DNA of 58,407 nucleotides, filler included, from Catajapyx aquilonaris (Eukaryota): assembly GCA_000934665.2 (NCBI GenBank). It is 3 parts of 3 records of this genome, joined end to end, with 100 filler letters (N's around TTAATTAATTAA, not from the genome) between each part and the next. Parts side by side here need not be neighbours in the genome. Positions count along the whole stretch, not along the records: positions 19,370 to 38,954 come from KZ539548.1; 2 more parts are not named here. One strand, written 5' to 3'. Shown in pieces: positions 20,203-44,201 of the stretch. The notes below the pieces were generated by a model, which saw only the letters and a program-made list of their open reading frames with translations, was not told the DNA's origin and did no database searches. Position numbers and translations under genes: made by a program. Numbering within the stretch: position 1 is the stretch's first letter; every line of letters begins with the position of its first letter.

Positions 20203-21165
20203 ATGGCTTTCAAGCACCTGGTGAGTACAGCTTTAAATGTGTTTAAATTTGGCTTGAAAATTGGACTTCGACACAGCAGATTATGCGTGCTATAATTTTG
20301 TAAGGATCGGCGGAGTTTGGCATGAGTATTGTTGTCTAATTTCAGTTCATCCTGGTGGCCCTGTGCCTTGCCTTTGTTGCTGCAGCCAAGGAGCAGAAGG
20401 AGGAGAAGCTGGATACTGCTTCCGGAATCGGCCTAGGTTATTACGGCGGATACGGATACGGTCTTGGCGGATACGGATTGGGCTACGGGCTGGGATACGG
20501 CCTGGGATACGGCGCATTCGGTCAGACCATACTGATAGTTACAAAATAACATTAGAAATCGGCTAATGTGATTATTTAAACTTGATACAGTTCGTAATGT
20601 CCTATATTAGTATTTTAGTAGTTTAGTTCATTTACTTTCTTTCCTTCCGTTAATGTTCTTATAGGTTAAAGTTAATATACTCAGATCATTAAGGTGAATC
20701 ACGTAATATTTGTAGTAACTAGTTCATTCAAATCTTACTTTTAATTAAATCGGTCAACTTTAATATGACAATTGCTTAGAGTAAAACCTCGATTCATCGT
20801 TTTTGTCGGGAAGCAAAACGATGGATTCGGGAAAACGATACATACGGGAACGATATATTGAGGTTTACTAGTTAATAAATTCAAATATTAGGTAATTATT
20901 TAATATGACTTTTATATGACAATTGCTTTAACTGTTAGAGTAAAACCTCGACATTTGTTTTTATCATGAAACAAAAGGATAGATGCGGGAACAATAAATC
21001 GAGGTTTCACTGTTCTTAGTAAATTCAAATGTTAGGTGATTATTTAAGCACATTCGTTTCCTTTTTCACTGCTTATTACTCCATTAATCAGCTATAATAA
21101 ATTATTTTAACAATCTATTTTCAGGCTACCCCTACTACGGCGGATACGGGTTCTACGGCCGCTAA
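20203..21165 (+). CDS. Secreted Gly/Tyr-rich protein 1 (cuticular protein-like), 77 aa: join(20203..20220,20346..20520,21125..21165)
   Basis: MAFKHL|FILVALCLAFVAAA signal peptide, KEQKEEKLDTAS, GYG repeats, ends GYPYYGGYGFYGR*. GT-AG introns; AATAAA at 21210. Confidence 0.88.
20763..21047. repeat. Tandem duplication of about 150 bp containing a tiny TIR element (AGTAAAACCTCG...GAGGTTT) in GY gene 1 intron 2
   Basis: Two diverged copies, about 20763-20903 and 20915-21047. Confidence 0.55.
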
Positions 21166-22612
21166 ATTCACCGACGTCATGACGGTCCTGTAGATCATCA
21201 TTTTTCCTGAATAAATTATGGCATGACATCAACAGCCTTTAACTTTCATCCCTTAATTACCAATATTGTGGACAAGGGGGGTTATTGTTGAGAGGAAGAA
21301 GTTAGCTGGAGGCAAATTTAATGGGCACGGCCAGTTGCAGGTGCGCGACCCTGATCGCATTGTAAACACCGGCTACCTACACTTACGGAACCTCTTCGGT
21401 TAATTATTCACTCAAGGGCAGAGTTCGAGATCGCATCGGATCGCGTGAATGGACCAAAAGTGGCGGTCATTAAGGCTCCTTTCATGCGCCCCGGATAGTA
21501 CAGCACGAGGCGATTAATCAGGAAATCCGCACTGATTAATCGTCACGAACCTTTTAAGACCGGATGTGCGCCCATAAAATACGACATTAATCTCTCAGTG
21601 TTCGCGGGGGGTTTCTCAGGAATTCTTCCGCAACAGAAAATGGAGACGATTGTCATAATTGCTGTCAATGGACGCGAACATAATGGCTCAATTACCTAAG
21701 AATCTGACCGATATCATGTCAGGAAAGCACGTTATTCATTGCCCGCCCTTGAGTCGATAAGTAATGTAGGGCTGCGAAATAGTAGTGTTGTATATCATGT
21801 CACTGCCTCAAGTCCTTTCGCCCCCAAATATGACCTCCTATGAGTATTAATTTCAAGTACAGACAACCCAAAAAACTATTGAAACACACTGTATTTTTCT
21901 TGAATATCAATAAATATTCATGTGCTCTTGATAGCATATTTATCATTCGACAGCCATTATTATTTTGACTTCCTCGATGCCAATCATTTGTTTGTCCTTT
22001 CCTTATTTGGTGCCCAGAATAACAATTCATGTTTTTACTACAAGAAACAGTCACTTGGGCGACACTTCATAAAGAAATTAATCCTGTTCCAACTGACAAG
22101 CCCACATATTTCATATCTGCCATTTAAAGTATGGAATGTTTCAGAACAATGCCAATAATTGCAAAATTCCTGATTCGATAAATTACCATAATAATTGACC
22201 ATATCCGTGCTCTTAATATTCCTCCCAGCAATCATCGAACTTGCCCAATTTCAGCACAAAAAAAATAGTTCAATGCCAAACCTGAAGCCAGGTGTCGATA
22301 CTATTTTCTTTTGTTCCGAAAAATCTTCCACATCCTGGTTCGGAAGCTACAAGAAAAAAAAGTCTTCCTCCACGCAGGTTTGGCCCTTGAAAAGATCTAG
22401 AGAGCCTTAAGGGGGGTGTGGAAGTAACAAAAAGGGCGGCAACTTTATTCCAATCAGAGGTCAAACTTGTTTCTTTCTTTTTTTTCCCTTGCTTCATTTT
22501 TCGCCTCTCGTGTACCTACGCATTATGACGTCAACATGAAATTTCAGCCAAGACACCTATCTCAACATGCATTGGCTGGTTCCCCGCCAGGTCTGTGCCA
22601 GTCACCACTTCT

Positions 22613-22690
22613 TGACCTTCGCTAAGGTCCACCCTGTGACCTTACTGACCAGTATAAATTGGACTACTCCTGTCCAAGAAGGCATTCCAC
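22613..22690 (+). promoter_or_regulatory. Core promoter of GY gene 2 (TGACCTT x2, TATAAA 22653)
   Basis: CTGACCAGTATAAATTGGAC identical to the gene 1 promoter. Confidence 0.75.
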
Positions 22691-22745
22691 TACCGAAGCT
22701 CAATATCTGCCAATTGTGTCCCAACACTAAAACAACCCAACCAAA

Positions 22746-23284
22746 ATGTTCAAGTATCTGGTAAGTCCATATTTTAAACCCCCTGAATTATGCGAAACCC
22801 TGTGAATAACGGAATTCGGTTTCTTCTGCAGCACTAACAATCCATTGTTAGTTCAGTACGATTTTTTTCATGTCAATTACTCAGTACTGAACATTTGTCG
22901 TTATAACAATTTAACTGCAACTTAACCATTGTTTCAGATTCTGCTGGCTCTGGCCGTGGTCGTCCTGGCCGTTGAGAAGGAAGAGAAGCTGGAGACCGCC
23001 TCCGGTGTTGCCCTCGGATACGCTGGTCTGGGCTACGGTTATGCTGGACATGGTCTTGGCTATGCTGGCTACGGACATGGCTATGGACTCGGCTACGGCT
23101 ATGGCGGACACGGCTACGGATACGGCGGACACGGCTATGCTGGCCACGGCTACGGCTATGCTGGTCATGGTCTGGGCTACGGCTATGCTGGTAAGAAACA
23201 TATTTCATATGACATACCCTGAGTGTACCTAACCCACTTTTGTCTATTACAGGCTACCCCTATGCTGGTGCCTACTACGGTTAA
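22746..23284 (+). CDS. Secreted Gly/Tyr/His-rich protein 2, 99 aa: join(22746..22760,22938..23190,23253..23284)
   Basis: MFKYL|ILLALAVVVLA signal, VEKEEKLETAS, GYAGHG repeats, ends GYPYAGAYYG*; AATAAA at 23344. Confidence 0.9.
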
Positions 23285-24174
23285 ACAACAAGAGTTCAAA
23301 AGACCAGCGGCCATCAACTGGTCGTGTACCATCGTTTTTCTGGAATAAATTATCCATGACACCCCATACCATTACTTGTTTTTTGAACCTTCAAAATTAT
23401 GCCCGGACGTTATCTCTATTATACAGGGGTTGCACCTGCACTTTTGCTTGAACCACTTCCGTTAATTGCTCTCACAAGGTTGGAATTTGATTAGTGTCGT
23501 GATCGGATCGAATCGCGTGAATGGACTTCTGGTTACTTAGAGAGAAAAAACTGGTCCTGTCTTTTGCATGCTGATTAGGTCAGTAGTTGCTGAGTTTTAA
23601 TGTTCACATAGTTCAAGGAAATTCCTTTGCTCCAAGCAGTGTGTGAGAGTACATTAGCTTCTGGACATTTAATGGGAAGTTTTGTAATCAGCGTGACTGT
23701 CCTATTAAGATAGCTAATAAAATAATGAACTTGTCAATTTACACATTGCTGATTATTATTTAAACCCGTAACATTGTGAAGTTCTAGCCACATTGTAGGT
23801 CTGAAATATGCAAATATTATCGCCGAAGAGCTATAAATTTAATTTAAGTGTACTATACAAATAAATCAGTTTTTTAGTGCACAATGTAGCCAAAATATTA
23901 AATATAATTGACAATAATTTGGTGTACTGTACCATAGTCATATGGTGCACTTTTATCAATTTTGAGGAATCGAGAGTTAAGCAACAACCACCCAAAAAGA
24001 TTCTAAAATGAACAAGTAATTTTAAAAGACAAAAAAGTAGCTTTCTCCTTTTTGAGTTGCCACATAATTTCATACATTATCGAAAGTGAAATTTTTGGGA
24101 ACCACAACACTATCAATATGACTCTGAAAGTACGTGTCAATGCGATCATCCGTTACTGGTCACTTCCTACTGGA

Positions 24175-24217
24175 CAGTATAAATTAGACTGGTACATAAG
24201 TGGTTTCCGTCATTCAG
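24175..24217 (+). promoter_or_regulatory. Core promoter of GY gene 3 (TATAAA 24178, CATTCAG 24211)
   Basis: CAGTATAAATTAGAC matches the paralogues. Confidence 0.7.
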
Positions 24218-24232
24218 CCGCTAGTTTCCAAT

Positions 24233-24673
24233 ATGTTCAACTGCCTGGTAAGTACTCAATTGTTGTACTATGCCGTACGTAGCTATAGTAGCCTTAAATT
24301 GAAAGAAAATTTAAAATTATTTTTGCTTCGTTTAAAACTGATGGAGCCTAGGACAAAAAAAACTAATATTATTTTTGAACCTAATCATCATTGTTAATTA
24401 TCTTCAGATCCTTCTGTTGGTGTGTGTGGCCGTGATTGTTGCGAAGGAAACAAATGAGAAGTATCAAACCTCGGCTCAAATAGGACTTGGGTACGGATTA
24501 TATCCTTATTATGATGGCCTGTACGACGACTATTTATTTGGATATGGCTACGGTCCGGGCTTCGGTTACGGAGATTTTGGTAAGAACTATAATTAGCAAA
24601 ATTAAACTTAAAAGTAAGCACTCATTTTGACCAAACCGGATTATTCCTTCCAGGCTATCCTTTCTACGGTTGA
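24233..24673 (+). CDS. Secreted Gly/Tyr/Asp-rich protein 3, 68 aa: join(24233..24247,24408..24579,24654..24673)
   Basis: MFNCL|ILLLVCVAVIVA signal, KETNEKYQTSA, ends GYPFYG*; same exon phases as the paralogues. Confidence 0.85.
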
Positions 24674-25747
24674 CCACCTCGTGGCCTTCAGAGGCCAATG
24701 TCCAGCGCAATTTTCAAGAAAGAGATGGCCCGCAGCACTTGACCGGCCATAAACTTATCCGCATATTTTTTTAAACGTTCACTCCGCAACAAAGATCAAT
24801 CGCGTGATGTCCGGGTGCGCATATTAATTAGCTCTCATGTCAATTAACAGCCAATTCCTGGATCTAATGTGTGCGATACGTCCTTTTCCTCATCTCTCAC
24901 CAGTGTGTTTCAATTTTTCATGTACTGTACTTCCTACATTGTTGTAAATTCGACAATTTCAGAAAATTGCTCATTTTTAGTACACAAAAGGGGTGTACTA
25001 TCACTGCAATTAATCTGGGTATTGAAGTGGGGGTTTAAATAAATTTATCCCAGACTGTTGTTTTTATGTACTGTACAAAAGTGATTTGTTCCATAATAAA
25101 TCATTGACATCATGGTGTTTCCAAACATTGTTTTTTCTTGCACAAAATTTTGCAATAACGTGCGTCATTTCCCAAAGCATATACGCCCATCCGCACACTT
25201 TCCAAAAAAAATGTATAAAATTTCATGCCAAATGGCAGGAGCCTTAATGTTCATTGCGCATATTTTCACAATGATAATTCCCCTCCTTAGCAAACTACCC
25301 TGTAATTGTCAAAATGTTCTCATCCCATCCATCAGTGCGAGTGATGCTCGCAATATCCTGCGTCCTGAGGGCGTGCATCTTAATAATTTTCTCCGCTAAA
25401 AAAAATTCGCAACATTACGCAATCCGCTCACAAAAAAAATGGCAACAAACTCTGGGGGCACAATTCGTTCCACATCCTTCGATATAAGAAAACAAGCTCT
25501 GAATAATGAAGTCATATTTGAAAGGTGGAAAAAAAATATCTGATTGTGCAATTCTAGTAATTGAATCAATCGGTGACTCTTTTTTTTGGTTCGCCTTAGG
25601 TCACAGGTCACCAATTGCAGAACCATATCTGAGGGCCAATCATAAACCGTGTCCTTTTATCTTTCCAAGAGTGGACAAAGATTCAAAAGTGGGCGCCTGT
25701 CACTGCCATTCAGCCTTCGAGAAGAAAGCAACCCCCCCCCCCTCCCC

Positions 25748-25897
25748 NNNNNNNNNNNNNNNNNNNNNNNNNNNNNNNNNNNNNNNNNNNNNNNNNNNNN
25801 NNNNNNNNNNNNNNNNNNNNNNNNNNNNNNNNNNNNNNNNNNNNNNNNNNNNNNNNNNNNNNNNNNNNNNNNNNNNNNNNNNNNNNNNNNNNNNNNN
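25748..25897. other. Assembly gap (150 N) flanked by poly-C and poly-G
   Basis: N run without the linker core. Confidence 0.95.
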
Positions 25898-26321
25898 GGG
25901 GGGGGGGGGGTGAGATTTATTTAAAATTATTGTGCATTTAGGCCATCTGATATTGACTAAATATAATGCTAAATAATTTTGCATCCACTGATTTAAAAAA
26001 ATAGTGTATATGAACATGATATCAACAATGGGAATGCTGAAGTGATGATAATATTTTCATTTTAAATGTACACAATGTCAATTTTTTCAAACACTTACAC
26101 CGTCAGAGTGTGCTAATTATTTATTAAATAATTTTGGGACACTACGATTTTTCATTTTAATTGCTGTTTAGTTTACTATTTAAGTCGTGAAAATATGCGA
26201 ACATTTCCACTCTTCTAGCAATATTTTGGGCAAATTATTTTACCAAATTGTGCATAACTGTCCTCTGCTCGTTTTGATTGTGAGAAGTGACCTGAGTGAC
26301 CCACCCTCCAAATTGTTGCAG

Positions 26322-26707
26322 ATTGTTGCAGCACTCCTTTGCGTGGCATTGGTATTGGCCAAGGAAAAGAAGGATGAGAAGCTGGACACTGCTGCTGGAG
26401 GATACCTTGGTTACGGGCTGGGTCTCGGGTATGGAGGATACGGAGGTTACGGTGGATACGGTGGGTATGGAGGTGGCCTCGGATACGGCGGGTACGGTGG
26501 ATACGGCGGATATGGTGGCGGATACGGAGGTTATGGCGGATACGGAGGATATGGCGGATACGGAGGATATGGCGGATATGGTAAAATATTTGGCTACATC
26601 TTTTTTTTTTGAAAAGTTTCGTTTACAATATTGTTCTTTCTCTTTTAGGTTATCCTGGACTTTATGGCGGATATGGCAAGGGATATGGCGGTGGATTCTA
26701 TGGCTAA
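26322..26707 (+). CDS. Secreted (GGY)n-rich protein 4, 5' partial: join(<26322..26580,26649..26707)
   Basis: IVAALLCVALVLA signal part, KEKKDEKLDTAA, GGY repeats, ends GYPGLYGGYGKGYGGGFYG*; first exon not visible; AATAAA at 26756. Confidence 0.87.
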
Positions 26708-27528
26708 ATTCATGTTGAGATCATGCAATCATGTTGATTGTGTTAATACTTGAATAATAAATTATGCGTGACACCACAGTTTATGTGTTTGGTCATTCTG
26801 AGTGTCTTCAGAGAACGTACCTGAGTTATCTGTCTTGAAAACCTACCGTCTGGGAAAGAAACAGCGTAAAATTAAATAGTAAAGTAAGAGTACAAGTAGA
26901 ATAAATTCAACAAAAAGGGCAGCTCGTAATAAAATATTTGAGCCTGAGCACTAGTTCATGGATATTTTCCTAGGAATTTATTACTGTTCTTTTCGGCGAT
27001 TTGCCAGCAAGTTGTAATGCTGATTGAAAACTGGATATGAAGCTGTCCATAATAATTTTTAAATGTTCCGAATGATTATATTCTCTATATAGGTTTACAA
27101 GTCACTATAGATTTATGCCACATCTGCCAAAATGCACTATAACTTCTATAAGAATTTTGTGGCTCTGTGCGTGAAACTAATATGTCCCATCCAGGTTAAA
27201 CTGAGAAAATAATTTGCTTAATTCATTTCCCATCTTAAACAGATGGTGTAATGATAAGTTACAATAGCGCAAGCCTAAATTGATTTCAACTTATCAGGTG
27301 GCATTCTCATCAAATATTCATAACATAGCTCAGGATCTGAAGTTTAAAAAAAAACTGTCGTTAGTTTCCTGCACAGATCTACTACATTATTAGTATGCAA
27401 TACTTCTAAGCAATTCGGTGTGATTTGAAATTCGAATTTTAAAGCCAAAAAGTGGATGAGTGAATCAAGTGCGTCGGTGTCACTAAATATAACGCGGATG
27501 CTTAAAATTATAATAATTGTAATATATA

Positions 27529-28722
27529 CCGTCAAGCGGGGTTACTTAGGCCGGGCGGGTAACTTAAGCCATTTTGCTGCGTAAATTTCGGACACTGATT
27601 TTGGCAACACTGTTTTGAGTTGAAATGTTATTTTTTATGACACAAGTTCCGTATTTAAGTGCAGTTTTGGACTGCATATTTGAATATTGTGTTTGTGTCA
27701 TAGGTAACTTTGTAAAATCTTAATTATGTTTAGGATAATTGCATCATAAATTTATACCCTGCGTAACTTTCATCGCCAACATCATCTGTTTGAATTTAAT
27801 TCGTTATAAAGATGATGAAACATAACCTGCAACAGTCCTTTTAAGGTAGTTATACTGCATAGCTTTTCCATTTTGGTGTCAATATATACTTAAAAATTAA
27901 TTGTTGCGTCATGTAGGGGGTAACATAGGCCACCTGGCCACGTAGGTCCAAGCCTGGCAGGAAGTGGGGGGATTAGCTTCTGGGGGTCAGGAGTAGGGCT
28001 GTGCGATATTTCGATACATCGACTGTCGATACGATATTTTCCTAATATCGAAGTTGCGATATCCGACGCTTGGCATGTGCGATGTATCGAATATCGCGAT
28101 GTCGGTTTTCTATATTTTTCGATGTCGGTTCGATGTCGATTTGCGATATTTTTCGATGTCGGTTCGATGTCGGTTTGCGATATTTTGCGATGTCGGTTTT
28201 CGATGTCGGTTTTTCGATTTTCGATATATCGACTTCGATTCGATATTTTTTCGGATATCGCACAGCCCTAGTAGTTGCCTAGTTGGGAGCATTGTTGATG
28301 ATGAAATGTATGTTCACATATCAGAAATATTGTTTGTTCTGTACAGCCGGTGAGCATAAAGAGAGGCCGCCATACTTTCCCTTATATTGAACTGAAATTT
28401 TGAACAATAAATTTCTGGAGCAATATGCAAATGTTTATTTTCGCCCTGTGAACGGACTTTGTTACCGTGTCATCGTCTAACATAAGCGAAACACTGAATT
28501 CTTCCTGCTGGCTTAAGTTACCCCACATCGGGGGGTAACTTAAGCCACCCCTTCTTTTTTTTGTTTTTATCATACATGTTGTAGGAAACGTTCATCCATG
28601 TATACGTCGACCGTAACTGTAGACCCATGTTTTACAACAATTAGTTAATCTCTAAAGTCAATGCTTCTTGAATTGGCAGATGTCTGAAATTGAAAAGTGG
28701 CTTAAGTAACCCCGCTTGACGG
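27529..28722. mobile_element. pogo/Tc1-type non-autonomous element
   Basis: TA|CCGTCAAGCGGGGTTACTTA ... TAAGTAACCCCGCTTGACGG|TA. Confidence 0.8.
27994..28270. mobile_element. hAT-like MITE with TCGAT/ATCGA subterminal repeats, nested in 27529-28722
   Basis: Perfect TIR TAGGGCTGTGCGATAT / ATATCGCACAGCCCTA; no 8-bp TSD recognisable. Confidence 0.7.
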
Positions 28723-31164
28723 TACTCATTATACGAGTATATATACAAGATATTTCGTTATGAAGTTCTTCATCAACTAATAGAAAAGAATGGATTCGAG
28801 CAAACTGGCTACATAATACTTTGTCAATGACATCTCATCAGAAACAGCTGTTACTATGTCTGGAAGATTGATCACAATTGTATGTTCAAATTATTAAAAA
28901 TTAAAACCTGCTAATGGCTCATTACAGGACATTTTAAATAAAACATTTTCAGTTTGGCTGATACATTAAATCCCAATTTAATAGAGCTATTTACAGTATA
29001 AATGGCAGTTAAAGGAGTGGTTTTGTAGCTACAATATTGTGCTCAAAATTTTGGTTGTTTGCATCTACCTGAAGTCCATTTCAAGTTGCCATAATTACAA
29101 TATTTCACTAAAATGCTGGCAGACCACTGTCTTGCAATGTTCATCCTGGAGTCACGCAACCCACACGACTTTCCTCTCAAGGTTAACACAAGAAAAAACT
29201 ACCATTCAACACTCAGCACCCTATTCACTATGGGGTAGCTCAGTTGCTCAAGAGATGTCGTCGCTCGTTGAGCTGCTACCATGCAAGTTCACCATCGGAC
29301 AAGAGATGGAGGACCAGGGTGAGAAATATGCACAATAAAATGGTCCACTTTTCACGCATTGTCGACCAGGTTAGTGTTACTTTATACACGCCCCCTGAAT
29401 AAAGCCTCTTTTGCACCAGGAAAGTGACGCAAGACTATTAGTAGGTTGATGATTATGCCGGATAAGATACATTCATTGATAAATGTAAACTATGTTGCAA
29501 TTACCAATGAACATAGTTGATTGCAATTGCACAAAGAGAAACTTTACGAAGAAATTAGATTTTACGGAGATCGATTTTTAAAAATATATTTGCACAGTGG
29601 TTACTTTCATATAATTACCAGTTAGCAAGTTCGAAATCACTAGTTGTAATTTAACTGTAGTATAACTCTACAGGCGTAAGTTACATTATATCTGAATTTA
29701 AATTTTTCTCTTAAGAATTGCTTTTGCAGGATCGTTATTTTTCTACTTACATATTCTGCCTAGTATCAAAACCTGGTAAAAAGTTAATCGGTTTTACTAG
29801 AAATATGGCAATGCAGTAGCCATATTTTCAAATAAACTGTGTCATATTGTTCCTATGTGCAGCGCATAGCAATTGTAAATCACATCTGCTATTTCAAGCA
29901 ATAAAAAAGTTGCTCAATATCAGCCTCTTTTCCTTCAGGTTCAAATTCTCTCTAAAGTTGGATCGTTTACTATAACAAAAGGCTATGAATTCATGTAATT
30001 TGAACACTATACTTGTACGTGTAGTGTAATAATAATAACTGAGCTATCATATTACTTTGAAAATATTGGGTTACCTGTACCAACTACTTCTCTATTTGGG
30101 TTAAGTGGCATATTTTATATCTCCATAACTTAGCACCATAACCATTACTAACCTCATAATGAACGCTCCATTTAAAAATTCAAGCGATATCACATTCTCA
30201 TGTGAAACGTTAGTCAATATTTATCGGTCCATAAAGCGTATCAATAGGAGACACTCTGAGCTTTATTTGACACTGATTTATTCGTCTATTTTCAAAACTG
30301 CACAATATTATGAAGCGTTTACTTTTTGTTAGTTTATTCAAATTATTAACTTTTACAGTGTGATTTTTAATGAATATTAAAATAATTAAACAAGATAGCC
30401 ATTTACGTATCTATAAGGTCAGGTAATATGAAAGTAAATAAATTGCGGTTTAATAAGCGATTTAATTATGAGTAATGAGCATTTTAAATATCTTGTTCCA
30501 ACAATATGTTGCATCCAATCCGATTATTGATAATTGTGTTGACTCCAATGATTAGTTTCCCACACTAATTCCTCTCCTGTTTTCAGAAATCCGAACTAAT
30601 TATACACCAGAAAAGCTTGGCTATAAAACAACTTTCTCTATTACACATTGCAACTATTTTTTTTTAACTCGCATGAGAATCACTTCGCGGATGGATAGCG
30701 CAACAAAACTGCACGTCATGAAAAATCCTTATCTCACTTTATATTACCTTCCTGATTCCCCCCTCCCACAAATAATTTCCCATTCTCATGACATAACTCC
30801 GGGGCCCCCGTGATTTAATGACACGTTCCAGTGCGACCCAATCCAATCAATCATGTGACCCAGAGCCTCACGTGTTGCCAAAACTGCCGCGTGATTTGCC
30901 AATTTTGCCCTCCAACAATACCACGGGCCATATCCCAATCGGAAACGCCAAATTAGTTTGCAAGGATTTAGCAACAGCTTGGTTTGAGAAAATATCAGAT
31001 TTGTGTCGTGAGAAGTTTGAAAAATTTGACGTGAAAAAAAAATTTGGCGTAGGAATATTTCAGCAAGTTGCTCTCACTACTTGTGGGCATAATAATTGCT
31101 TTATAAATACTGGAGTAAGTGGTTTGTAACAGACAGTGTGGATTCAGGTGCGACAAGTGTCAAT

Positions 31165-32375
31165 ATGGCTCGAAAACTGGTAAGACATCATTAGTTTTTA
31201 CGTCCTATCTCTAGTAGTGTTTGCACACTATTGTATCTAAAAATCGCTGCAGTGACAATGTAGTATGCATGCTTTTGGCACATTGTTGGCATGTAACCCG
31301 TTCAAGCAAATCATGTCAACAGGTGACATGCTGACCCCAACAGATGCTTGTAACCACATGTGCCAATCTTCAATTTAGTACGGCCATTGCTCAGTTATTG
31401 ACTATCCTTGCACCAACAATGCAGTCTTTAAAACAATGAAAGCAAATTTTAAAATCATGTAGGCGACAGTGTCTGTCCACGGTGACTCATCACCAACGTG
31501 CATGTTTTCCGCCTGAGAGCGGCAGTAGTGTGCAGAGGGGCGCCACCTGCTTGTGGAATATTGTACTACGTCCAAGGGCCGGGCCGGGCAGTGTTGCCAA
31601 GTTTTTTAAAAAAATAATGACATCAAACGATTTCAGTTATCCGAATGAATTTTAAAATATATAAATTTAATTTAAATCCTTGACAATTTCACACATTTTA
31701 TCCTTCAGATTTGTGCATACCTGGCCGTTTTTCTGGCCGTGGCCTCGAGTGAAGCCCCAAAAGGCGACAGCAAGGATGAAACTCTAGAGACCTCCGAAAC
31801 AGGTAAGACACCTGCATAATTACATTCACGTCACAGCAGTGTCAACCTGAGCAAATCCCATCTCATGAATAATAATTTTGTACACTATAACATACTACTA
31901 CCTTTTGTCCACAGGGTTCCTTGGATATCCTCTGGGTCTTGGGTACAATGGAGGCGGTCTTGGGTACAATGGAGGTGGTCTTGGGTACAATGGAGGCGGA
32001 TTCGGTTACGACAAGTTGGCCTACCCTGCTGCTCCAGTGTACAGCAAAATAGCATATCCGGCCCCGATTTACAGCAAATTGGCCTACCCTGCACCAATCT
32101 ACACCGGGAAGGTCGCCTACCCTGGACCCATTTTTGGAGGAAAATTGGGCTACCCAGGAGCACCCATCTACAATGGCAAACTTGGCTTCCCTGCACCTAT
32201 TCTTGGTGGCTACCCAGCACCGTACCCTAAGTTTGGTCTAGGACACGGTCTCGGGTACAGTGGAGTCAGCTACTCTGTATCCAATTTGGGGTATTCCACC
32301 CCATTTGTTGGGCATTACTCGGGGTACAACCCAGGGTTGGGTTTTGGCTCTGGTTTCGGCTACGGCCACTACTAG
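31165..32375 (+). CDS. Secreted Gly/Tyr/Pro-rich cuticular protein 5, 189 aa: join(31165..31179,31709..31802,31915..32375)
   Basis: TATAAA at 31102; MARKL|ICAYLAVFLAVASS signal; KDETLETSET; GLGYNGG repeats; KLAYPAAPVY/KIAYPAPIY repeats typical of insect cuticle proteins; AATAAA at 32383. Confidence 0.88.
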
Positions 32376-32617
32376 ATGCACAAATAAAGAGTTCCTGACC
32401 TTTACCTTTGAGTATTTCTGATTGTCCTTACAGTATGTGTCCTATCTATAATTGACTTTTCGTCTGATGCTTGTCCGAGCTGGTAGTACCTCTACCCCTC
32501 GCACGACCAGGAGTGGCAGGAACGTGCAGAGGGAGGATGCGCCATCTATGAGAAAAAGGAGGTAAGCTGCGACAAAGGGAGACTCGCTCTTTCTACCTCC
32601 AGCACAGAATGATGGTT

Positions 32618-32629
32618 AATAAATTTATT
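32618..32629. terminator. Palindromic AATAAATTTATT: poly(A) hexamer on both strands between convergent genes
   Basis: TTTATT 32624-32629 lies about 75 nt after the stop of the minus-strand gene. Confidence 0.55.
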
Positions 32630-32703: not shown

Positions 32704-35700
32704 CTAAGCCGTTACAAGCGATTTTCGAGTCCTGGGAGACATCCTTCTGGATTCGAAGTGATGGAAAGGCGATGAGTACTGTCTCTCCAGATGCTCATGT
32801 AAGTCTGAGTTATCGTCTCTGATGTCCTCTTTGTCACCTCTGGAATATGTAAAGTTACTAAACTCGTCTGACGCCTCTTTACCCTTCGCACTGTCCCGTC
32901 CTTTCCGGACACCGTCGTCTTTACACAGAAAACCATGGAATGAATCTTGGCACTGCACCACTTTCTCTGTCACTGCTGGAAACACAGCGTCTCGTCGTCT
33001 GCCTGTTGACGGCGGTATCAGTCCGGCGTTGAAGTTGCCACTTCCACTTCTGGGGTTAATACCACTGCCAGGAAGAAGTGGAGGGAGGTAAGGTGGTGGG
33101 GTTCTAGGTGGAGGCGTCGGTGGCGACGGTGGTCTGGGACAGTCTGGCCTGTAGTTTGGCGTTCCAGGGACGTAACTGCAGGGACCTGGAGTTGGCCTTC
33201 TTGTCGTTGTTGTTACTGGTCTTCTGGTTGTTGTAGTTGCAGGTGTTGGTGGCCTAGGACAATCCGGACTGTAGTTCGGCGTTCCTGGGACATAGCTGCA
33301 GGGACCTGGCGGTGGTCGTCTGGTGGTCGTCGTTGTCGGTGGCGATGGCGGCCTGGGACAGTCTGGCCTATAGTTTGGCGTCCCTGGGACATAACTGCAG
33401 GGACCTGGAGTTGGCCTTCTCGTCGTTGTCGTTATCGGCCTTCTTGTTGTTGTCGTTATCGGCCTTCTGGTTGTTGTAGTTGCAGGTGTGGGTGGCCTAG
33501 GACAATCCGGACTGTAGTTCGGCGTCCCTGGGACATAACTGCAGGGACCTGGAGAGGGCCTTCTTGTCGTTGTCGTTACCGGCCTTCTGGTTGTTGTAGT
33601 TGCAGGTGTCGGTGGTCTAGGACAATCCGGCCTGTAGTTTGGTGTCCCTGGTACATAACTGCATGGACCTGGAGTTGGCCTTCTTGTCGTTGTAGTTACA
33701 GGCCTTCTGGTTGTTGTAGTTGCAGGTGTCGGTGGCCTAGGACAGTCTGGCCTATAGTTCGGTGTCCCTGGGATATAACTGCAGGGACCTGGAGTTGGCC
33801 TTCTTGTCGTTGTAGTTACAGGCCTTCTGGTTGTTGTAGTTGCAGGTGTGGGTGGCCTAGGACAATCCGGACTGTAGTTCGGCGTCCCTGGGACATAACT
33901 GCAGGGACCTGGAGAGGGCCTTCTTGTCGTTGTCGTTACCGGCCTTCTGGTTGTTGTAGTTGCAGGTGTCGGTGGTCTAGGACAATCCGGCCTGTAGTTT
34001 GGTGTCCCTGGTACATAACTGCATGGACCTGGAGTTGGCCTTCTGGTCGTTGTTGTTACTGGTCGTCTGGTCGTTGTAGGTGGAACCGGGGGTCTGGGAC
34101 AGAAAGGATCGTAGTTAGGATCTCCAGGCCTGTAACTGCAGGGTGGTGGAGACGGTGTTGGTGGACCTGGACAGAAAGGATCGTAGTTGGGATCTCTAGG
34201 ATTGTAACTGCATGGACCAGGCGATGGGAAAGGAGGAATGTACGTCGGAGGTGGGGACTTCGTCGTCTTCGGCCTCTTGGTGATTCCTTGTGAGTCAATG
34301 TCCTCGTCAGTCTCCTTATTAAACGGATCCTTGGTAGTCACAGGTCTACGAGTGGTGGTAGTCACTGTGATAGGCCTACGAGTGGTGGTAGTTATGACCG
34401 GCCTACGAGTGGTCGTAGTAGTTATGATCGGTCTACGAGTGGTAGTAGTTATGACTGGTCTGCGAGTCGTCGTAGTCGTAGGTCTCGTAGCAGGTGACGG
34501 ACAGTTAGGATCGAAGTTAGGTGTCCCTGGAACATAACTGCAAGGTGTTGGACGTCTTGTGGTTGTTGTAATAGGTCTACGAGTGGTCGTAGTTGTAGTT
34601 CTCGTGGCTGGAGATGGACAGCTTGGATCGTAGTTAGGCGTCCCTGGAACATAACTGCATGGTCCACGAGTAGTAGGTCTGGTTATAACTTGTGAATCGG
34701 TCTGGGCATCAGTGATAGGTCGTGGCCTCGAAGTTCCGGTCGTAAATGGTCTTCTTCCGTTACCAGGCTTGCACAAGAAGCTGTGGAAAGCGTGTTGACA
34801 CTTGTCGTATCCTTCGGTGCCGTAACCAGACGGTGTTGAAGTAGTTCTCTTCGGTGTTAGTGAATCAGCATCGATGATCTCATCAGTTTCGTGACACTCT
34901 GGATCTCTAGGGTTAAAGTACGGGCTGTCGGGATCTTTGCTGCACTTTGGTGATCTCGTGCTGGTTGGATAAGTGAACGTGACTCTTGGTGTCGTGTACG
35001 TGTAACCACTTGTTGTAGGACGTGTAGTAGGACGTGGTGTAGGACGTGTAGTGGGACGTGGCGTAGTGGGCCTAGGACATGCTGGATCGTAATTAGGATC
35101 TTGTGGATTAAAACTGCAAGGGCAATTAGGATCATAATTCGGATGTCGAGGATTAGGACTGCAGCGACATGATGGATCGTAGTTGGGATCACGTGGATTA
35201 ATACTGCATGGACAGCTAGGGTCATAATTGGGATCACGAGGATTTGGACTACACCTTGGAGGTTGTGTCGGACGTGTTGTCGGACGTGTCGTTGGACGTG
35301 GGGTTGGACGTGTGGTCGGTGGGTATGTGAATGTGACTCTTGGTGTAGTGTATGTGTATCCGGTTGTTCTGCTCGGTGTCGGTGTTGGTCGTGTTGTTGG
35401 ACGTGTTGTTGGACGTGTTGTTGGCCTCGTCGTTGGAGCTGGGGTAGGGCATAAAGGATCATAGTTGGGATCACGAGGGTTGTAACTACACGGACAGTTG
35501 GGATCATAGTTCGGATCACGGGGATTAAGACTGCATCTGCAAACCGGATCATAATTAGGATCACGTGGATTAGTGCTGCATGGACAGTTCGGATCATAGT
35601 TGGGATCACGTGGGTTTGGACTGCATCTTGGTGGCTGAGTCGGACGTGTTGTCGGACGTGTTGTTGGACGTGTGGTGGGGCGTGTTGTTGGCCTCGTCGT

Positions 35701-38700
35701 GGGCCTCGTTGTTGGCCTAGGTGTTTGTCTTGTAGTTGGAGCTGGCGTGGGGCACAAAGGATCATAGTTGGGATCACGAGGGTTGTAACTGCAGGGACAA
35801 TTGGGATCATAGTTCGGGTCACGAGGATTAAGACTGCATCGACAATCCGGAGAATAATTAGGATCACGTGGATTAGTGCTGCATGGACAGTTCGGATCAT
35901 AATTTGGATCACGAGGATTTGGACTGCATCTTGGCGGCTGAGTCGGACGTGTTGTTGGTCGTGTTGTTGGTCGTGTTGTTGGTCGCGGTGTTGGACGTGT
36001 TGTGGGTCGAAGGGTACTTGGTGGGTATGTAAATGGAATGCTTGGTGTAGTGTATATGTATCCAGTGGTCCTGCTTGGGGTGGGTGTTGGTCGCGTTGTT
36101 GGTCTAGTCGTTGGGCGCGTCGTTGGACGCGTCGTTGGCCTCGTCGTTGGCCTGGTTGTTGGCCTGGTTGTTGGAGCTGGTGTAGGGCATAATGGATCGT
36201 AGTTTGGATCACGTGGGTTGTAACTGCAGGGACAATTGGGATTATAATTTGGATCACGTGGATTAAGACTGCATCGACAATCTGGAGAGTAATTAGGATC
36301 ACGAGGGTTGACACTGCATGGACAGTTCGGATCATAATTGGGATCACGAGGGTTTGGACTGCATCTAGGAGGCTGAGTAGGACGTGTTGTGGGACGTGTT
36401 GTGGGACGTGTTGTGGGACGTGTTGTTGGTCGTGTTGTGGGCCTAGTAGTAGGACGGGTAGTGGGCCTGGGTGTTGGAGTAGTTGGTCTAGGACATGACG
36501 GATCGTAATTGGGATCACGTGGGTTGAAACTACAGGGACAATTTGGATCATAATTGGGATCACGCGGATTTGGACTGCACCTTGGCCGTGTAGAACTTGG
36601 TGGGTATGTGAATGTAGTTCTTGGTGTTGTGTACGTGTATCCCGTTGTCCTTCCTGGCGTTGTTGGTCTTGTGGTCGGTCGTGTTGTTGGCCTTGTGGTG
36701 GGCCTGGGAGTAGTGGGTCGTGGACATGACGGATCATAGTTGGGATCACGAGGGTTGAAACTACAAGGGCACAGTGGGTCATAGTTCGGATCTCTAGGAT
36801 TAGGACTACATCGACATGACGGATGATAATTAGGGTCACTTGGATTTGTGCTGCAAGGACAGTTAGGATCGTAATTTGGATCCTGTGGGTTTGGACTGCA
36901 TCTAGGCGGTTGAGTCGGACGTGTCGTCGGTCGTGTGGTTGGACGTGTGGTTGGACGGGTGGTTGGACGGGTGGTTGGACGGGTGGTTGGACGGGTGGTT
37001 GGCCGTGTTGTTGGCCTCGTCGTTGGCCTGGTCGTTGCTGGTGTAGGGCATAAAGGATCATAGTTGGGGTCACGTGGATTGTAACTGCATGGACAATTTC
37101 GGTCGTAATTAGGGTCACGTGGATTTAGACTGCATCGACAATCCGGAGAATAATTAGGATCACGTGGGTTCACACTGCACGGACAGTTCGGATCATAATT
37201 GGGATCACGAGGGTTTGGGCTGCATCTAGGTGGCTGAGTCGGACGTGTTGTTGGATATGTAAATGGTGTACGTGGAGTAGTGTAAGTGTATCCTGTAGTT
37301 CTGAATGGTGTAGTGGGACGTGTCGTTACACGTGTTGTTGGTCGCGTTGTTGGACGTGTTGTGGGGCGAGTTGTAGGCCTCGTTGTTGGCCTTGGAGTTG
37401 TTGCAGGTGTAGGACACGATGGATCATAGTTGGGATCACGTGGATTGTAACTGCATGGACAGTTGGGGTCATAATTAGGATCTCTGGGATTTCTGCTGCA
37501 CTTGCAATCCGGAGAATAATTAGGATCACGTGGGTTCACACTGCAAGGACAATTGGGATCATAGTTGGGATCACGTGGGTTAGGGCTGCATCTAGGCGGT
37601 TGTGTCGGACGTGTTGTTGGATATGTAAATGTTGTACGTGGTGTAGTGTATGTATATCCGGTTGTCCTGGGTGTCGTTGGACGTGTCGTTGGTCTAGTTG
37701 TTGGTCTAGTTGTAGGCCTTGTAGTGGGCCTGGGAGTAGTGGTACTAGGACGTGGACAGGAAGGATCATAGTTAGGATCACGAGGGTTGAAACTGCAGGG
37801 GCACAGTGGGTCGTAGTTCGGATCTCTAGGATTAGGACTGCATCTGCATGAAGGATAATAGTTTGGATCACGTGGATTAGTGCTGCAAGGACAGTTTGGA
37901 TCATAATTTGGATCCTGTGGATTTGGACTGCATCTTGGCGGTTGAGTCGGACGTGTGGTTGGACGTGTGGTTGGACGTGTTGTCGGACGTGTGGTTGGCC
38001 TCGTTGTTGGTCTGCGTGTGGTAGTAGAAGGACCAGGACAAGATGGATCGTAGTGGGGATCACGAGGGTTAAAACTGCAGGGACAATTGGGATCATAATT
38101 AGGATCTCTTGGGTTTGGACTACATTTAGGACGACGTGTTGTACTAGGTGGGTATGTGAATGTTGTACGTGGTGTGGTGTAAGTGTATCCTGTTGTCCTA
38201 GGGGTTGTGGGCCTTGTTGTTGGCCTAGTGGTTGGTCTAGTCGTAGGCCTTGTAGTCGGCCTGGGTGTTGTGGTACTAGGACGTGGACAAGAAGGATCAT
38301 AGTTGGGATCACGAGGGTTGAAACTACAAGGGCACAGAGGGTCATAGTTCGAATCTCTAGGATTAGGACTACATCGACATGACGGATGATAATTAGGGTC
38401 ACGTGGATTTGTGCTGCACGGACAGTTCGGATCGTAATTGGGATCACGGGGATCCGGACTGCATCTGGGAGGTTGAGTCGGACGTGTTGTTGGCCGTGTA
38501 GTTGGTCGCGTTGTTGGGCGTGTTGTCGGTCGTGTTGTTGGCCTCGTTGTTGGCCTTGGAGTTGTTGCTGGCGTTGGACATAATGGATCATAGTTGGGAT
38601 CACGACGGTTGTAACTGCAGGGACAATTGGGATCATAATTAGGGTCACGAGGATTCAGACTGCATCTGCAATCAGGAGAATAATTTGGATCACGGGGGTT

Positions 38701-38952
38701 GACACTACAAGGACAGTTTGGATCGTAGTTGGGATCACGTGGGTTTGGACTGCATCTTGGTGGCTGAGTAGGACGTGTTGTTGGATATGTAAATGTTGTA
38801 CGTGGTGTAGTGTAAGTGTATCCTGTGGTTCTGAATGGTGTAGTAGGACGTGTCGTTACACGCGTTGTTGGTCGCGTTGTTGGACGTGTTGTTGGACGTG
38901 TAGTCGGTCGTGTTGTCGGCCTCGTCGTCGGCCTTGGAGTTGTTGCTGGTGT
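32704..38952 (-). CDS. Giant mucin-like extracellular protein with Cys-loop and (TTRP)n repeats, 5' partial, at least 2082 aa in one exon
   Basis: The frame of ORF 32704..37539 reads on without a stop to the linker in all stretches translated by hand; the GTG at 37539 is an internal Val. Repeats: [27 protein letters not shown](R/S)PDC. Confidence 0.9.
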
Positions 38953-38954
38953 AG

Positions 38955-39054
38955 NNNNNNNNNNNNNNNNNNNNNNNNNNNNNNNNNNNNNNNNNNNNTT
39001 AATTAATTAANNNNNNNNNNNNNNNNNNNNNNNNNNNNNNNNNNNNNNNNNNNN
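38955..39054. other. Artificial sequence joint (44 N + TTAATTAATTAA + 44 N)
   Basis: Identical to 19270-19369. Confidence 0.95.
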
Positions 39055-39233
39055 CGTTTCCGGACACGGTTTCCTATGTCAAAAATACTTGTCTTTGTCC
39101 CCTCTATTACCCCTGCAAGTCTTTGCAGAGTTACAATAGACACCCTGTATAATAGCAGAACTCTTTGGTAAAAACACGCCTGTTACCTGGCAACTAAGTA
39201 AACACTTGGGACTGCTAATAATAATAATAATAA

Positions 39234-39261
39234 CTAGCAGGTTACCCGGCGTTGCCCGGGT
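39234..39261 (-). mobile_element. Helitron-like 3' terminus
   Basis: Minus strand reads GC hairpin ACCCGGGCAACGCCGGGT, a short spacer, then CTAG|T. Confidence 0.5.
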
Positions 39262-39750
39262 ATGTTGGGGTGCTGGTCAAGATAGGGGTACATATCTGTG
39301 ATAGGCTACCTGCTTGTCTTATAGCGTACAGTCGACACGGATATTCTGATTGGATGTGTAAAAGGAGGAATGCGGATGGAGTTGGCCCAGGAAAACACTG
39401 CACAGCCATGTGCTTTTCCCCCTGCATTTTTGACCCCTTGACCCCCCCCCCCCCAACCCCACTTCACACCCCCACCTTGTTCCATATGTTTGCTCTGAAG
39501 AACTTCAGAAATGTACATACAGATGTATGATGGGAAATTTTGTTTTCAACATGGAGTAATATTTTGCAAATACTGTATTATTTAATTGTATTTACTTTGT
39601 CTGGAAGTCTACTTTCAAATCCCACAAAATCCCGGAATTACCATAAGATACGAAGTCACGTGAGGTGGCCAATTAGCGTATTTGGTGGATGCGCTGAATT
39701 TACGGAGATGGTTTAATTTGCTAGGTATTGTGGCATAAGGGCATTTCCTA

Positions 39751-40050
39751 GGGGAGACAAAGTGGCGCTGCGGAAACGTCGGGTTCGATCCCAGCCCGGG
39801 GTTCCCTCCTTCATCCCGTGCAGAGTTGGGTCGTCTCTGGCTTCGTTTCGGGTGGAATCTCCTCAGACTAATCCACCCGGGGGAGTTCACAAAATATACC
39901 GTTTGAGAATTGCACTTGCACCTTGCACATCCCCTCCCAGTCAGCCTGCCCTTGGGCCCGGGCGCTACGTCAAAAAGGTTCCATCAAGACGAAATAAAGG
40001 TTCCCTCACTGCGGTACGATGCAGGGAGGTAAATAGCTAAAAAAAAGAGA
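39751..40050 (+). mobile_element. tRNA-derived SINE, family A (internal deletion in head)
   Basis: Head and core match 1401-1610; TSD GGCATTTCC at 39740 and 40051. Confidence 0.8.
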
Positions 40051-40267
40051 GGCATTTCCATGGGAATGCAAATTTATTTATTGTTATTGATGTAAGCTAA
40101 TTGTTGAGGCAGGAATATGCGTGTTGTGGAAGTTATGTACATTTTCGGAAGCTGAAACATGCGGCATTAGATTCCTTGGAAAAAGTAACCCCCTATATTT
40201 AAGGCGGTGTAAAGGCCTTCCCCTGGATTTCTATAAGGGACAAACATCCAAACTCACAAACTCACAA

Positions 40268-40404
40268 TTGTCAGAACCGCATATTCTGACCAGGTTCAAT
40301 TGCGACAATTAGGGTAATACCGCCTACAGCATAATGTTGTCAGTATCGCATATTCTGGCCGGGTTTAATTGCGACAATTGGGTAATGCCTCCTACAGCAT
40401 AATG
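40268..40404. repeat. Tandem duplication of about 69 bp
   Basis: TTGTCAG..CGCATATTCTG..CAATT..CCTACAGCATAATG occurs twice. Confidence 0.75.
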
Positions 40405-41537
40405 TGGATAGTTTTTTTTATTGTGACTCAAATCAGAAAGTTAGGCGCCGTACAGGCGGCTTTCGAGCTCCGTAGGCGACGTACAGGCGGATGTGGTCCA
40501 ACCGAAGTTCTCAGTGAGTGTTAGTCGCTAGGCATTCTGGGTCATGTGAGTGTCTTGACCAATCAGGGACAATTTTTGAAGTCGGCGGTTCACAAGGGGA
40601 ATCGAGTTTGCTGGTTGGTGTAAATTGAGGTAATTTTGTTGGACCAATAGGGTGCTGTAATTCAAATTTGGGAACCAATCATCGGTCCTTAGGGTGAGAG
40701 TGCATGAAAAAGTTAGGCTCGCTACAACAGCGGCAAAAATCAGGAGGAAGGAAAGAGAGGGGGAGAGGCTCGGCCCTCGGGGCAGATAGTCAGAGACCAT
40801 AGTGCGAGACGGTTGAGGTAGCCGGTCGTTCCCATTTAGGCGGCGACCACGCCATTTTTAGGGATGTAAATTAGGTCTCGGGGTTGAGTTGTTGTTGGGA
40901 TGGCACCCAGGTAGTGGAGTTTTCGAGTAGGGCTATGGGAGAGCGAATGGGTGCGGGGTTTGCTGGGATGTTAGGCGGGGTAGTGGTGTTGTGGCCATGA
41001 TGGAGAGGAGACAGGATTAGTTGGGCTTGGGAGGTAAATTTTGAGAGGGGCCAGATTTTTGGGTGAAGCAGGAAATTCAAAAGGGGGTGTGCCGAAGTGG
41101 CAATAGTTAGGCTGCGATGCTGATCCAGTCAGCTAATTATACCCATTTGTAAAAACTCCTCCCAAAATTAGTTGTTTTTGCATCAAGCCCCAACAATCCA
41201 AGATGGTTGTCCGCATCACAAGACGGCTGGCCGCAACACAAGACGGCGTCCCAAGGATGGAAGAAGAGGGGGGGTGAGAGCGTAAGAGTGTAACGAAGAA
41301 TAACCACACCTGTTTGATCATTTTGTTTGTAATTTAATTTTTTTGGAATAATAATTTGGTTCTAACTAAATCTGTCTCGACTACCTCTTTCCAACCCTGC
41401 TCACTTCACCTCACTTTGGGGGACACGCCCCTTCGAATTGTCTCCTCAATTCGGAGGCCTCCACACAATCAAGCTTCCTTATTTATAGATATAAAGATAT
41501 TATTATTATTATTATTAATAATAATAATAATAATAAT

Positions 41538-41945
41538 GTTTTATTTACCGCACCTGTGGCCTAGGCCATATGGGCGGGTGGTTCGCACGGAACATCTAAT
41601 ATTGAATATCACAAAAAACGACCTTGGTTGTCTGTGGTTTTCCAAGGTCACCCCAGGAAAAAAATTCCGGGATCGTACCGTAAAATAGGCCACAGCCGCT
41701 TCCTTCCTTTCCCTGTCCTGGAGGAGGTGCGGGTCAGTGGGGAGTTTCTGACTCACATCTAGGGAGTCATCTTGGCGAACAGGCCCCCTGAGGGACTGCA
41801 CACGATCCCCAACTTGATGACATTGCATATGCACCAGTGTCCCCCCCCTCCTATCCCTACTCTGTCCCTGCACATAGTGGTATTCCACTCCCCTAAGAGA
41901 GCCCATGGCTCTAGCACGGGGTATATCTTAAAAATAAAAATAAAA
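41538..41945 (+). mobile_element. Composite SINE remnant (family C core + family B body + shared 3' stem-loop), abutting an inverted SINE tail and (TAT)n(AAT)n
   Basis: GGCCACAGCCGCTTCCTTCC core as in 52415-52710; GGGACTGCAC..ATGACATTGCA as in 5861-6220; CACGGGGTA plus A-rich tail. Confidence 0.65.
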
Positions 41946-41974
41946 CGAGCTTATTACAAATCTCACAAAAAAAT

Positions 41975-43089
41975 CTATGCACCTGATACAGTACATATGC
42001 TGGGATATCTTTGAAAATTGAGAACATTTGGTACATATTTTTCCAGATCAATTCTCTGTGTATTAAAAAAAGGGCAGGCATACATTACGTGGAAGAGATC
42101 AAAGTCTTGCAATGTGTTACATAAAGTACTACATATATTCTGAGGTGCAAAATCAAACCTGTAGATATTAACCCAAATTGACTGAGTGTTATTTCTTAGG
42201 TTTGCCAAAAATTTGGTAATTTTTACCGGGAGATTATAATTAAAATAAATTTCTCTTACATAACTCAAATCCTTAATCGCTGAGTAATTTGCATATCTTT
42301 TAGATGTCATGAGCCATGAGAAAACAGGATGTGGCGTAACTGCAGCTATTCGTAGTCTCACTATTATTTTGTCACCTTAATAAAGTTGATCATAATCTTA
42401 AGTATATTTATGATCATTGGCCTTCTACCCGTTTCTAACCGGAGGAAATAACCCGCTGTACTCATTGGTAAGTTCAAGAATTTCTTTAAAAACCGCACCT
42501 GTACCTTCTCCTGCTCTGCTTAGCTCAGCTCAGTGCCCATACATTCGCATTATATAACGCGGCCGGGGCCACCTGAGCATCGAACAGTTTGCAACGCAGT
42601 GGAAAGGCTCCGATTTTTGTACTTCATTAACGTTACCCAAATAGCGTTCATCATTGTTATATCTTAGGAACAAAAATAGTTGGCAGTCTTTTTGTTCCTA
42701 GTATTACTATAGAGGGGGACACCCAGGTATTTATAGTTGTCTGTTATTTGCATCGTGTCTTCCTTCCACCTAAAACTAATTTGGTTCTACTGTTTTATGC
42801 TTTAAGGAAATTCAATATCTTTGTTTTATCCAAATTAATTTTCAAGTACAGTAGTTATTTCCAAGTATTCTGCAAGCAAGTTAATTTGCTTTTGTAAGTA
42901 TAGAGGATTATCAGCCATAATTACGAGATCGTCCGCATATCCCAAGAAATGCATATCTTCGGTATTCGAGAATAAATTGACCCCTGGAATTTTAGAATCC
43001 AGGAAAGTCTGCCTTAGACCTGCAGTAAACAAATTAAACAAGGTCGGGCTTAAGCTTTCCCCATGGGACTGGTAATATGTCCACTCCAC
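41975..43089 (-). mobile_element. Decayed non-LTR retrotransposon (LINE) ORF2 fragments
   Basis: RT motifs GESLSPTLFNLF and LGYADDLVIMA (42835-43089); C-terminal CSTLC..HVMYAC zinc-knuckle-like segment (41975-42361). Confidence 0.8.
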
Positions 43090-44166: not shown

Positions 44167-44201
44167 TAACATAAAATTTAATAACATGACAAGCATCTTA
44201 C

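Follow-up and report, generated by a model that had tools for sequence, protein, structure and literature searches.

The stretch of DNA considered here (the window: 58,407 nucleotides of the Catajapyx aquilonaris assembly, joined from parts of three contigs) carries, on the minus strand of its middle contig (C4020), the 3' part of a giant cysteine-loop gene. The gene, from an arthropod, is genuine and very long, and it encodes a protein of Cys loops set between Pro/Thr rods. Its frame is open from the contig end at 38952 to a TAG stop at 32704-32706, a run of 2082 codons, with 24-165 stops in each of the other five reading frames of the same stretch. The original prediction had closed the frame at 34900, about 2.2 kb (730 codons) before its actual end, and had missed ten type-B loops, two single A-like loops and two C-x8-C His motifs. 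It was right that an open-reading-frame track falls short by about 470 codons: the first GTG is codon 472 (37539), and the sole in-frame ATG stands close to the end (32742). The features of the gene are as follows.

32704..38952, minus strand: 3' part of the giant coding exon, with 2082 codons and a TAG stop; the contig ends before the 5' end of the exon is reached
35077..38754, minus strand: type-A array of 44 loops C-S-x-N-P-R-D-P-N-Y-x-P-x-C in 12 cassettes, with CxC joints and (TTRP)n rods of 35-86 residues
34966..38823, minus strand: eight GY[TI]YTTP-x2-FTYP spacer motifs
34894..34944, minus strand: degenerate 17-residue loop ending the type-A array
34744..34800, minus strand: Cys-bracketed His motif, then K-P-G-x-G-R-R-P-F, matching the post-repeat His motif of the proteins treated below as Zye-type
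33139..34659, minus strand: type-B region, ten type-B single loops and two single A-like loops, with TTTTRRP rods
34285-34299: IDSQG, in the type-B region
34231-34245: TYIPP, in the type-B region
32704..33099, minus strand: non-repetitive hydrophilic C-terminal tail
33079-33093: PYLPP, in the tail
32989-33003: basic GRRRD, in the tail
32923-32952: degenerate His loop, in the tail
32845-32856: one N-glycosylation sequon, in the tail
32624..32629, minus strand: AATAAA, candidate polyadenylation signal about 75 nucleotides past the stop

The type-A loops are C-x12-C units of 14 residues, repeated at a period of 15 in ten four-loop and two two-loop cassettes and joined as C-P-C or C-[RK]-C. All 56 loops in the window, and the 37 on a second contig described below, are C-x12-C. 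The dozen or so cassettes first proposed are indeed present: 32 of the 44 loops fit the exact pattern given for them and the other 12 depart from it at one position each, and the optional GYTYTTP..FTYP motif occurs eight times, as GY[TI]YTTP..FTYP. The fixed order of loops also holds in the ten four-loop cassettes, where the variable residue is always P in slot 1 (10/10), T, V or I in slot 2 (five, four and one), L, P or R in slot 3 (five, four and one) and Y or F in slot 4 (six and four). Type-B loops stand singly, in ten copies, with the consensus C-S-Y-[VI]-P-G-T-P-N-[YF]-x-P-x-C.

Although all 44 type-A loops are distinct as DNA, they encode only 24 distinct peptides, in keeping with the selection at the protein level that had been proposed from their synonymous variation. 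Over all pairs the proportion of synonymous differences (pS) is 0.81 and that of nonsynonymous differences (pN) 0.12, giving a pN/pS of 0.15, with 0.13 for the type-B loops and 0.05-0.18 within slots; these ratios are rough, the loop pairs being non-independent and pS close to saturation, but their direction is clear. The data support a loop array that is protein-coding and under purifying selection. Third-position identity is 0.62 within slots versus 0.53 between them, as duplication of cassettes predicts, and we rejected a ‘position code’ as a mechanism in its own right; duplication of whole cassettes is the best explanation of the fixed order. A slot-specific constraint may act in addition, as the lower pN within slots (0.03-0.12) would allow. 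The earlier description of the protein as cationic is correct for the window protein as a whole (289 Arg and Lys versus 135 Asp and Glu) and for the rods, which are basic (+8 to +15 per spacer), but not for the loops, which are acidic (mean -0.93 each). Ser/Thr make up 27-30% of the spacers and Pro 27-28%.

C4020 stops at 38954, and the next contig of the window, C4021, begins at 39055. The N-runs at 19270-19369 and 38955-39054 are N44-TTAATTAATTAA-N44 joins of separate contigs, so the DNA past 38955-39054 need not be the upstream region of the gene; an N-terminus within window positions 39055-48000 was dropped as a candidate, this being a separate contig that opens with a dispersed repeat. 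Searched with one cassette, the genome gave matches on C4020 and on one other contig only, C3171 (two of the 12 candidates scored). On its minus strand, C3171:2-3289 is open for 1096 codons and encodes 37 loops, arranged in ten groups that include two six-loop cassettes. C3171 terminates within the loop array, its orientation and end positions are complementary to those of C4020, and cassettes from the two contigs intermix by similarity (W37590 is nearest to C724, at 94%). Together the two contigs provide 3,178 open codons with no stop. On the simplest reading, C3171 and C4020 would hold the probable 5' part and the 3' part of a single gene, at least 3,178 codons long and interrupted by an unassembled gap.

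Behind a canonical splice acceptor (ttttccag) at 3289, the C3171 frame opens with ILHFSILIFLC, which exceeds every other stretch of the two halves in hydrophobicity. The bias of its second codon positions, 10 of 17 of which are T, fits a coding h-region, and an S-x-G cleavage-like site follows, making this a candidate signal peptide. The five small Gly/Tyr-rich genes adjacent to the loop gene share this design, a phase-0 acceptor and then an h-region, and a first exon of 5-6 codons was found in three of the five. The loop gene may be built likewise, from a tiny first exon, a phase-0 intron and a single giant exon opening with the hydrophobic core of the signal peptide. DNA contigs of the same sample cover the 5' region of C3171 (X1, X2 and X5 were compared, none coming from X5), which has no bearing on expression. 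No transmembrane stretch occurs in the window frame, where hydropathy over 19 residues reaches at most 0.26. Read from its sequence, and given the signal-like h-region, the product is supported as a secreted, Pro/Thr-rich protein of the outer or apical matrix type.

Comparison with other proteins took as its starting lead Zye, whose repeat is CYPGSxDPRC. One description (PMC13267644) gives caddisfly Zye (XP_077294013.1) a signal peptide, a ZP domain, cassettes of CYxxxxDP(R/S)C loops and Pro/Thr spacers, with 9-13 higher-order repeats in about 3,000 residues. Drosophila Zye marks the apical extracellular space, the site of cuticle assembly (PMC10857433), is listed among membrane-matrix genes of trichome formation (PMC9331688) and has a ZP-N reported to lack the tyrosine typical of polymerising ZP proteins (PMC7665627), a lack that fits a role independent of ZP polymerisation. 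As described, Zye and the loop protein are alike in their length of about 3,000 residues, in cassettes of Cys loops that end in D-P-x-C, and in their Pro/Thr spacers and higher-order repeats, and the loop protein has a candidate counterpart of the Zye signal peptide. They differ in their loops, which are 10 residues long with 9-residue linkers in Zye and 14 residues long and joined by CxC here, and in the ZP domain, present in Zye and not found for the window gene.

Scanning metagenome contigs for the Zye loop returned 56 rows from 51 loci of animal DNA, many of them near-copies of one gene. ZP exons are present at nine of the 51 loci, lying 2-6 kb from the repeat exon in L040 and L066, and a His motif lies in the loop-bearing frame at 11. 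With one locus as query we found six long proteins with both ZP domain and loops (P0010-P0015), three of them named by their source as from a mayfly and two amphipods; we call such sequences Zye-type from their architecture. Their repeat exons open, after a phase-0 intron, with the last ZP cysteines (I/L-C-x-x-x-C), and a transmembrane exon follows the repeat exon in L035, L042, L055 and L072. L047 carries C-x10-C loops in a fixed order, and Zye-type proteins also have ordered loop pairs, so that both lengthening and ordering of loops have precedent. Two of the six proteins look like gene-model fusions: P0011 has two tandem ZP-repeat-His modules with a frame-shifted middle, and P0010 joins a dynein model to a ZP-loop protein. 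A conserved H-[AP]-F-H-S motif directly precedes the basic cleavage site in Zye-type proteins of animals ranging from a mayfly to amphipods (P0010-P0015, L035, L042, L048, L077), and in several loci an intron splits the motif at the same place. We found no description of this motif in the literature searched, although the primary Zye paper or reviews may hold the loop or the motif.

The C-x8-C loop also occurs without ZP, in L063 with CBM_14 (PF01607), in L065 with Chitin_bind_4 (PF00379) and in L081 with a signal only; L080 (alongside L065) and L074 complete this set, which spans CBM14, R&R and poly-proline proteins. The loop seems to be a mini-module that moves among cuticular proteins, and Pfam gave no match to it in any loop-bearing protein scanned. 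L063, L065 and L081 use the 10-residue loop class without ZP and resemble the window gene in their secreted cuticular setting, but they are short, with few loops, a chitin-binding domain in two of them and no His motif in the stretches examined.

One link to the Zye-type proteins is the His motif. H[AP]FH[SAML][FWY] follows the repeats in five of the six ZP-and-loop proteins and in L048, and is absent from all nine non-Zye proteins compared (P0001-P0009). The same hexamer occurs once in the window frame (within 34771-34800) and once in that of C3171 (within C3171:3023-3052), where composition predicts about 2e-6. It is followed by KPG-x-G-R-R-P-F in our gene, by KPGGSRRKPF in L048, for which a pairwise comparison gave E 1e-5, and by GPGHKRPF in P0010. 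In the loops, removal of four residues from the type-A unit leaves C-x-x-N-P-x-[DN]-x-x-C, a minority form found in 17 of 529 distinct Zye-type loops. The loop had originally been seen as a new disulfide mini-module, which is probably wrong, as it reads as a C-x8-C Zye loop lengthened by four residues. The GYxY..TP..FT spacer is present in one of 13 Zye-type sequences, the amphipod P0011, which also has RPTT runs; YLPP-type motifs occur in eight of the 13 and twice in the window gene; and the loop flanks P-P-R-C..C-P-R-P are common to both. P0010-P0015, L048, L085 and L049 thus share with our gene the post-repeat His motif, YLPP, minority N-P-x-D-P loops, flanks, ordered loop pairs and, in P0011, the spacer. 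They are distinguished from it by their ZP domain, basic cleavage site and, mostly, C-terminal transmembrane segment, and their His motif is neither bracketed by two cysteines nor present before the repeats. Loop similarity alone is statistically weak, and the case for kinship with Zye rests on several short motifs that co-occur in the same architecture.

Neither the ZP domain nor the membrane anchor of these proteins was recovered. The 22 kb of C3171 upstream of the gene hold no ZP exon (best E 0.29, where ZP exons elsewhere in the genome reach down to 1e-66 with the same profile). No ZP domain is present in the window, and genome-wide ZP searches, which score the best candidates only in a fragmented assembly of 20,583 contigs, matched neither C3171 nor C4020. 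A Zye-like ZP domain was not found in this assembly, nor were canonical Zye loops (CYxxxxDP(R/S)C). In a ZP tree, seven own-genome domains fall on one side and 12 Zye-type ZPs on the other with support of 71/87; the seven own loci were the closest matches and two outgroups, and more distant-scoring ZP loci were left out. Five ZP genes of this genome, which we take to be dusky/miniature-like, lie on C617, C1241, C1853 and C3137 (two on one contig) and have no loop repeats in the stretches read. At the 3' end, the last 520 nucleotides scanned contain no GT[AG]AG donor; the GRRRD basic site is present, and two hydrophobic frames 6-8 kb downstream are unlike a Zye-type tail. Pfam returned no family for four window pieces and two C3171 pieces, so that the sequence covered has no R&R or CBM14 domain and the loop, as first supposed, is not a named domain there.

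Other searches were similarly unproductive. The best ESM Atlas scores, 0.76-0.77, fell under the lead threshold and belonged to mucin-like viral G proteins and one unnamed cluster; the exact type-A loop pattern had no matches in metagenome contigs; and PDB by sequence, Foldseek and VIA-align returned nothing for the type-A model, a null that is weak because a 70-residue model without regular secondary structure makes a poor query. A loose DNA pattern for the His motif hit 1,864 places and was uninformative, and the literature matches listed for the loop letters were unrelated acronyms only. Nematode epicuticlins were rejected as relatives, having only generic Tyr motifs in common with the gene (PMC9612446).

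AlphaFold2 modeled the type-A cassette with a local confidence score (pLDDT) of 79 and a global one (pTM) of 0.49, and a two-loop type-B unit with 63 and 0.23 (71-75 for its loops). In these models the loops behave as separate beads, as the beads-on-a-string picture of the original prediction would have it. Every loop modeled, four of type A and two of type B, has bridge residues at its positions 2 and 10. The underlying alignments had little depth (15 and 8 paralogous copies), and the output does not name bridge partners or disulfides. We infer an intra-loop bridge and a C1-C14 disulfide in each loop, the latter because the cysteines of the isolated type-B loops have no other near partner. 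Mucin-type Thr/Pro rods are O-glycosylated and extended. Each C-x12-C unit would fold alone into a small, disulfide-closed bead of Asn/Asp-Pro turns, and the rods would presumably be O-glycosylated and extended, so that the chain may act as a long spacer in which acidic beads alternate with basic rods. If expressed in a tissue that lays down apical matrix or cuticle, the protein could be anchored there through its three His motifs, its Tyr motifs and possibly disulfide exchange, and not by ZP polymerisation.

On balance, we propose that C3171 and C4020 belong to a single gene for a long secreted spacer of more than 3,180 residues that derives from a Zye-type repeat exon, with ZP domain and anchor lost or never present, and we assign this reading a probability of roughly 55%. 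A more specific version is tentative: that this is zye itself, rebuilt with loss of ZP and anchor, an extra Asx-Pro turn, loops fused through CxC and a His motif tripled and closed into a disulfide ring of its own. Several observations weigh against descent from Zye or against the single gene. The Zye-type label is inferred from architecture, is not used by the sources, and was applied without comparison to any named Zye sequence. The ZP tree split is weak at 71/87 and used only seven of the genome's ZP loci. The His hexamer pattern was set after both sides had been viewed, from five of six proteins and not from the literature; a small hidden Markov model of the region gave the window motif E 0.95, level with a non-coding frame, and 166,333 residues of six-frame translation include one chance hexamer that is non-coding. 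Scored on the Zye loop profile, only four of the 31 distinct loops surpassed their interior shuffles at p<0.05, with values ranging from 0.02 to 0.25. Word-index searches with the type-A repeats and residues 1320-1500 found no homologue, and phmmer against 1.84 billion representatives gave eight matches, low-complexity or bacterial and none Zye-type. As for the gene model, C3171 and C4020 do not overlap (the longest exact match is 86 nucleotides), the pyrimidine-rich h-region could partly be an intron polypyrimidine tract, and a scan for the first exon gave 20 candidates, none decisive.

An independent origin, in which a lineage-specific gland, glue, silk, egg-coat or gut mucin was built from generic cuticular motifs, strikes us as unlikely but deserves serious weight. 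The presence of Zye-type loops in L063 (CBM14), L065 (R&R) and L081 (signal plus loops) indicates that the module travels, the loop-level statistics are weak, and the bacterial protein P0001 carries the word D-P-N-Y-D-P-x-C, so that such words arise convergently. P0001, a Neolewinella lacunae repeat protein, is the best phmmer match (E 2.8e-24) and has 12 copies of the word, but it differs from our gene in its repeats of about 130 residues, its C-x-x-C after the word and its want of an opening Cys; convergence on the same Asx-Pro turn is the probable explanation. In both P0001 and P0009 of that species, D-P-N-Y-D-P-x-C-x-x-C recurs in every unit of about 130 residues. What argues against independent origin is that the His motif with its KPG..RR.PF context is confined to Zye-type proteins among those examined, that four separate motifs co-occur, and that the searches of this genome yielded no further zye candidate.

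Less probable again is an ordinary zye orthologue, with ZP exons more than 22 kb upstream or unassembled and a hydrophobic start that is merely intron polypyrimidine tract. So fragmented an assembly, searched through its best candidates, would favor this explanation, as would the phase-0 intron before the repeat exon of Zye-type genes and an alternative AG about 40 nucleotides further in. However, the last ZP cysteines (I/L-C-x-x-x-C) are absent from the start of the C3171 exon, the distance from ZP exons to repeat exon is no more than 2-6 kb in L040 and L066, nothing resembling the transmembrane or acceptor-tail exon of Zye-type proteins was found, and the codon-position bias fits a coding h-region. 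An assembly artefact, two paralogues or an untranscribed relic is very improbable: a contig end does break the array and the halves lack overlap, but 3,178 stop-free codons, pN/pS of 0.13-0.15, 44 loops all distinct as DNA, the restriction of loop matches to two contigs (two of 12 candidates scored), the intermixing of their cassettes (W37590-C724, 94%) and their complementary orientation and ends argue against it.

Zye is among the least studied of the arthropod ZP proteins, and in the literature found one paper describes its repeats and a few others mention it in passing; the gene also points to a conserved, apparently undescribed His motif common to mayfly and crustacean proteins. If the protein indeed lacks both ZP domain and anchor, its beads, some 90 near-identical copies kept by purifying selection, would allow the function of the repeat region to be told apart from that of ZP. 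Should zye itself have been rebuilt here, the repeat region and His motif would be functional on their own, without ZP polymerisation, for example by joining a charge-patterned matrix or adhesive to the adjacent Gly/Tyr proteins through metal- or quinone-mediated cross-links; were this merely zye with unassembled exons, it would be an ordinary divergent orthologue. The predicted 14-residue, self-folding disulfide bead and the acidic-bead and basic-rod blocks are easily made and assayed as peptides.

The neighboring genes on C4020 comprise the following feature.

20203..32376, plus strand: five small secreted Gly/Tyr-rich cuticle-like genes, with starts or second exons at 20203, 22746, ~24340-24420, 26322 and 31165

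The last of these ends 330 bp from the stop of the loop gene, on the opposite strand, and has AYPAPIY-type repeats. Behind the signal peptide the five share a K/T-[LY]-[DEQ]-T-[AS] motif, and they have mini first exons, as located in three of them. Their products may be partners of the loop protein, as their adjacency would suggest. On the preceding contig, window positions 4530-17400 (plus strand) hold exons of a large conserved gene that resembles the KIAA1109/tweek (bridge-like lipid transfer) family and may belong to it. Beyond the loop gene, positions 39160-40000 are a dispersed repeat with copies 85-97% identical and at least 53 genome matches (best 40 of 5,645 candidates). Judged by eye, a decayed reverse-transcriptase-like fragment lies at 41978-43020 (minus strand) and small exons for an acidic protein with one C2H2-like finger at 44200-45790 (minus strand).

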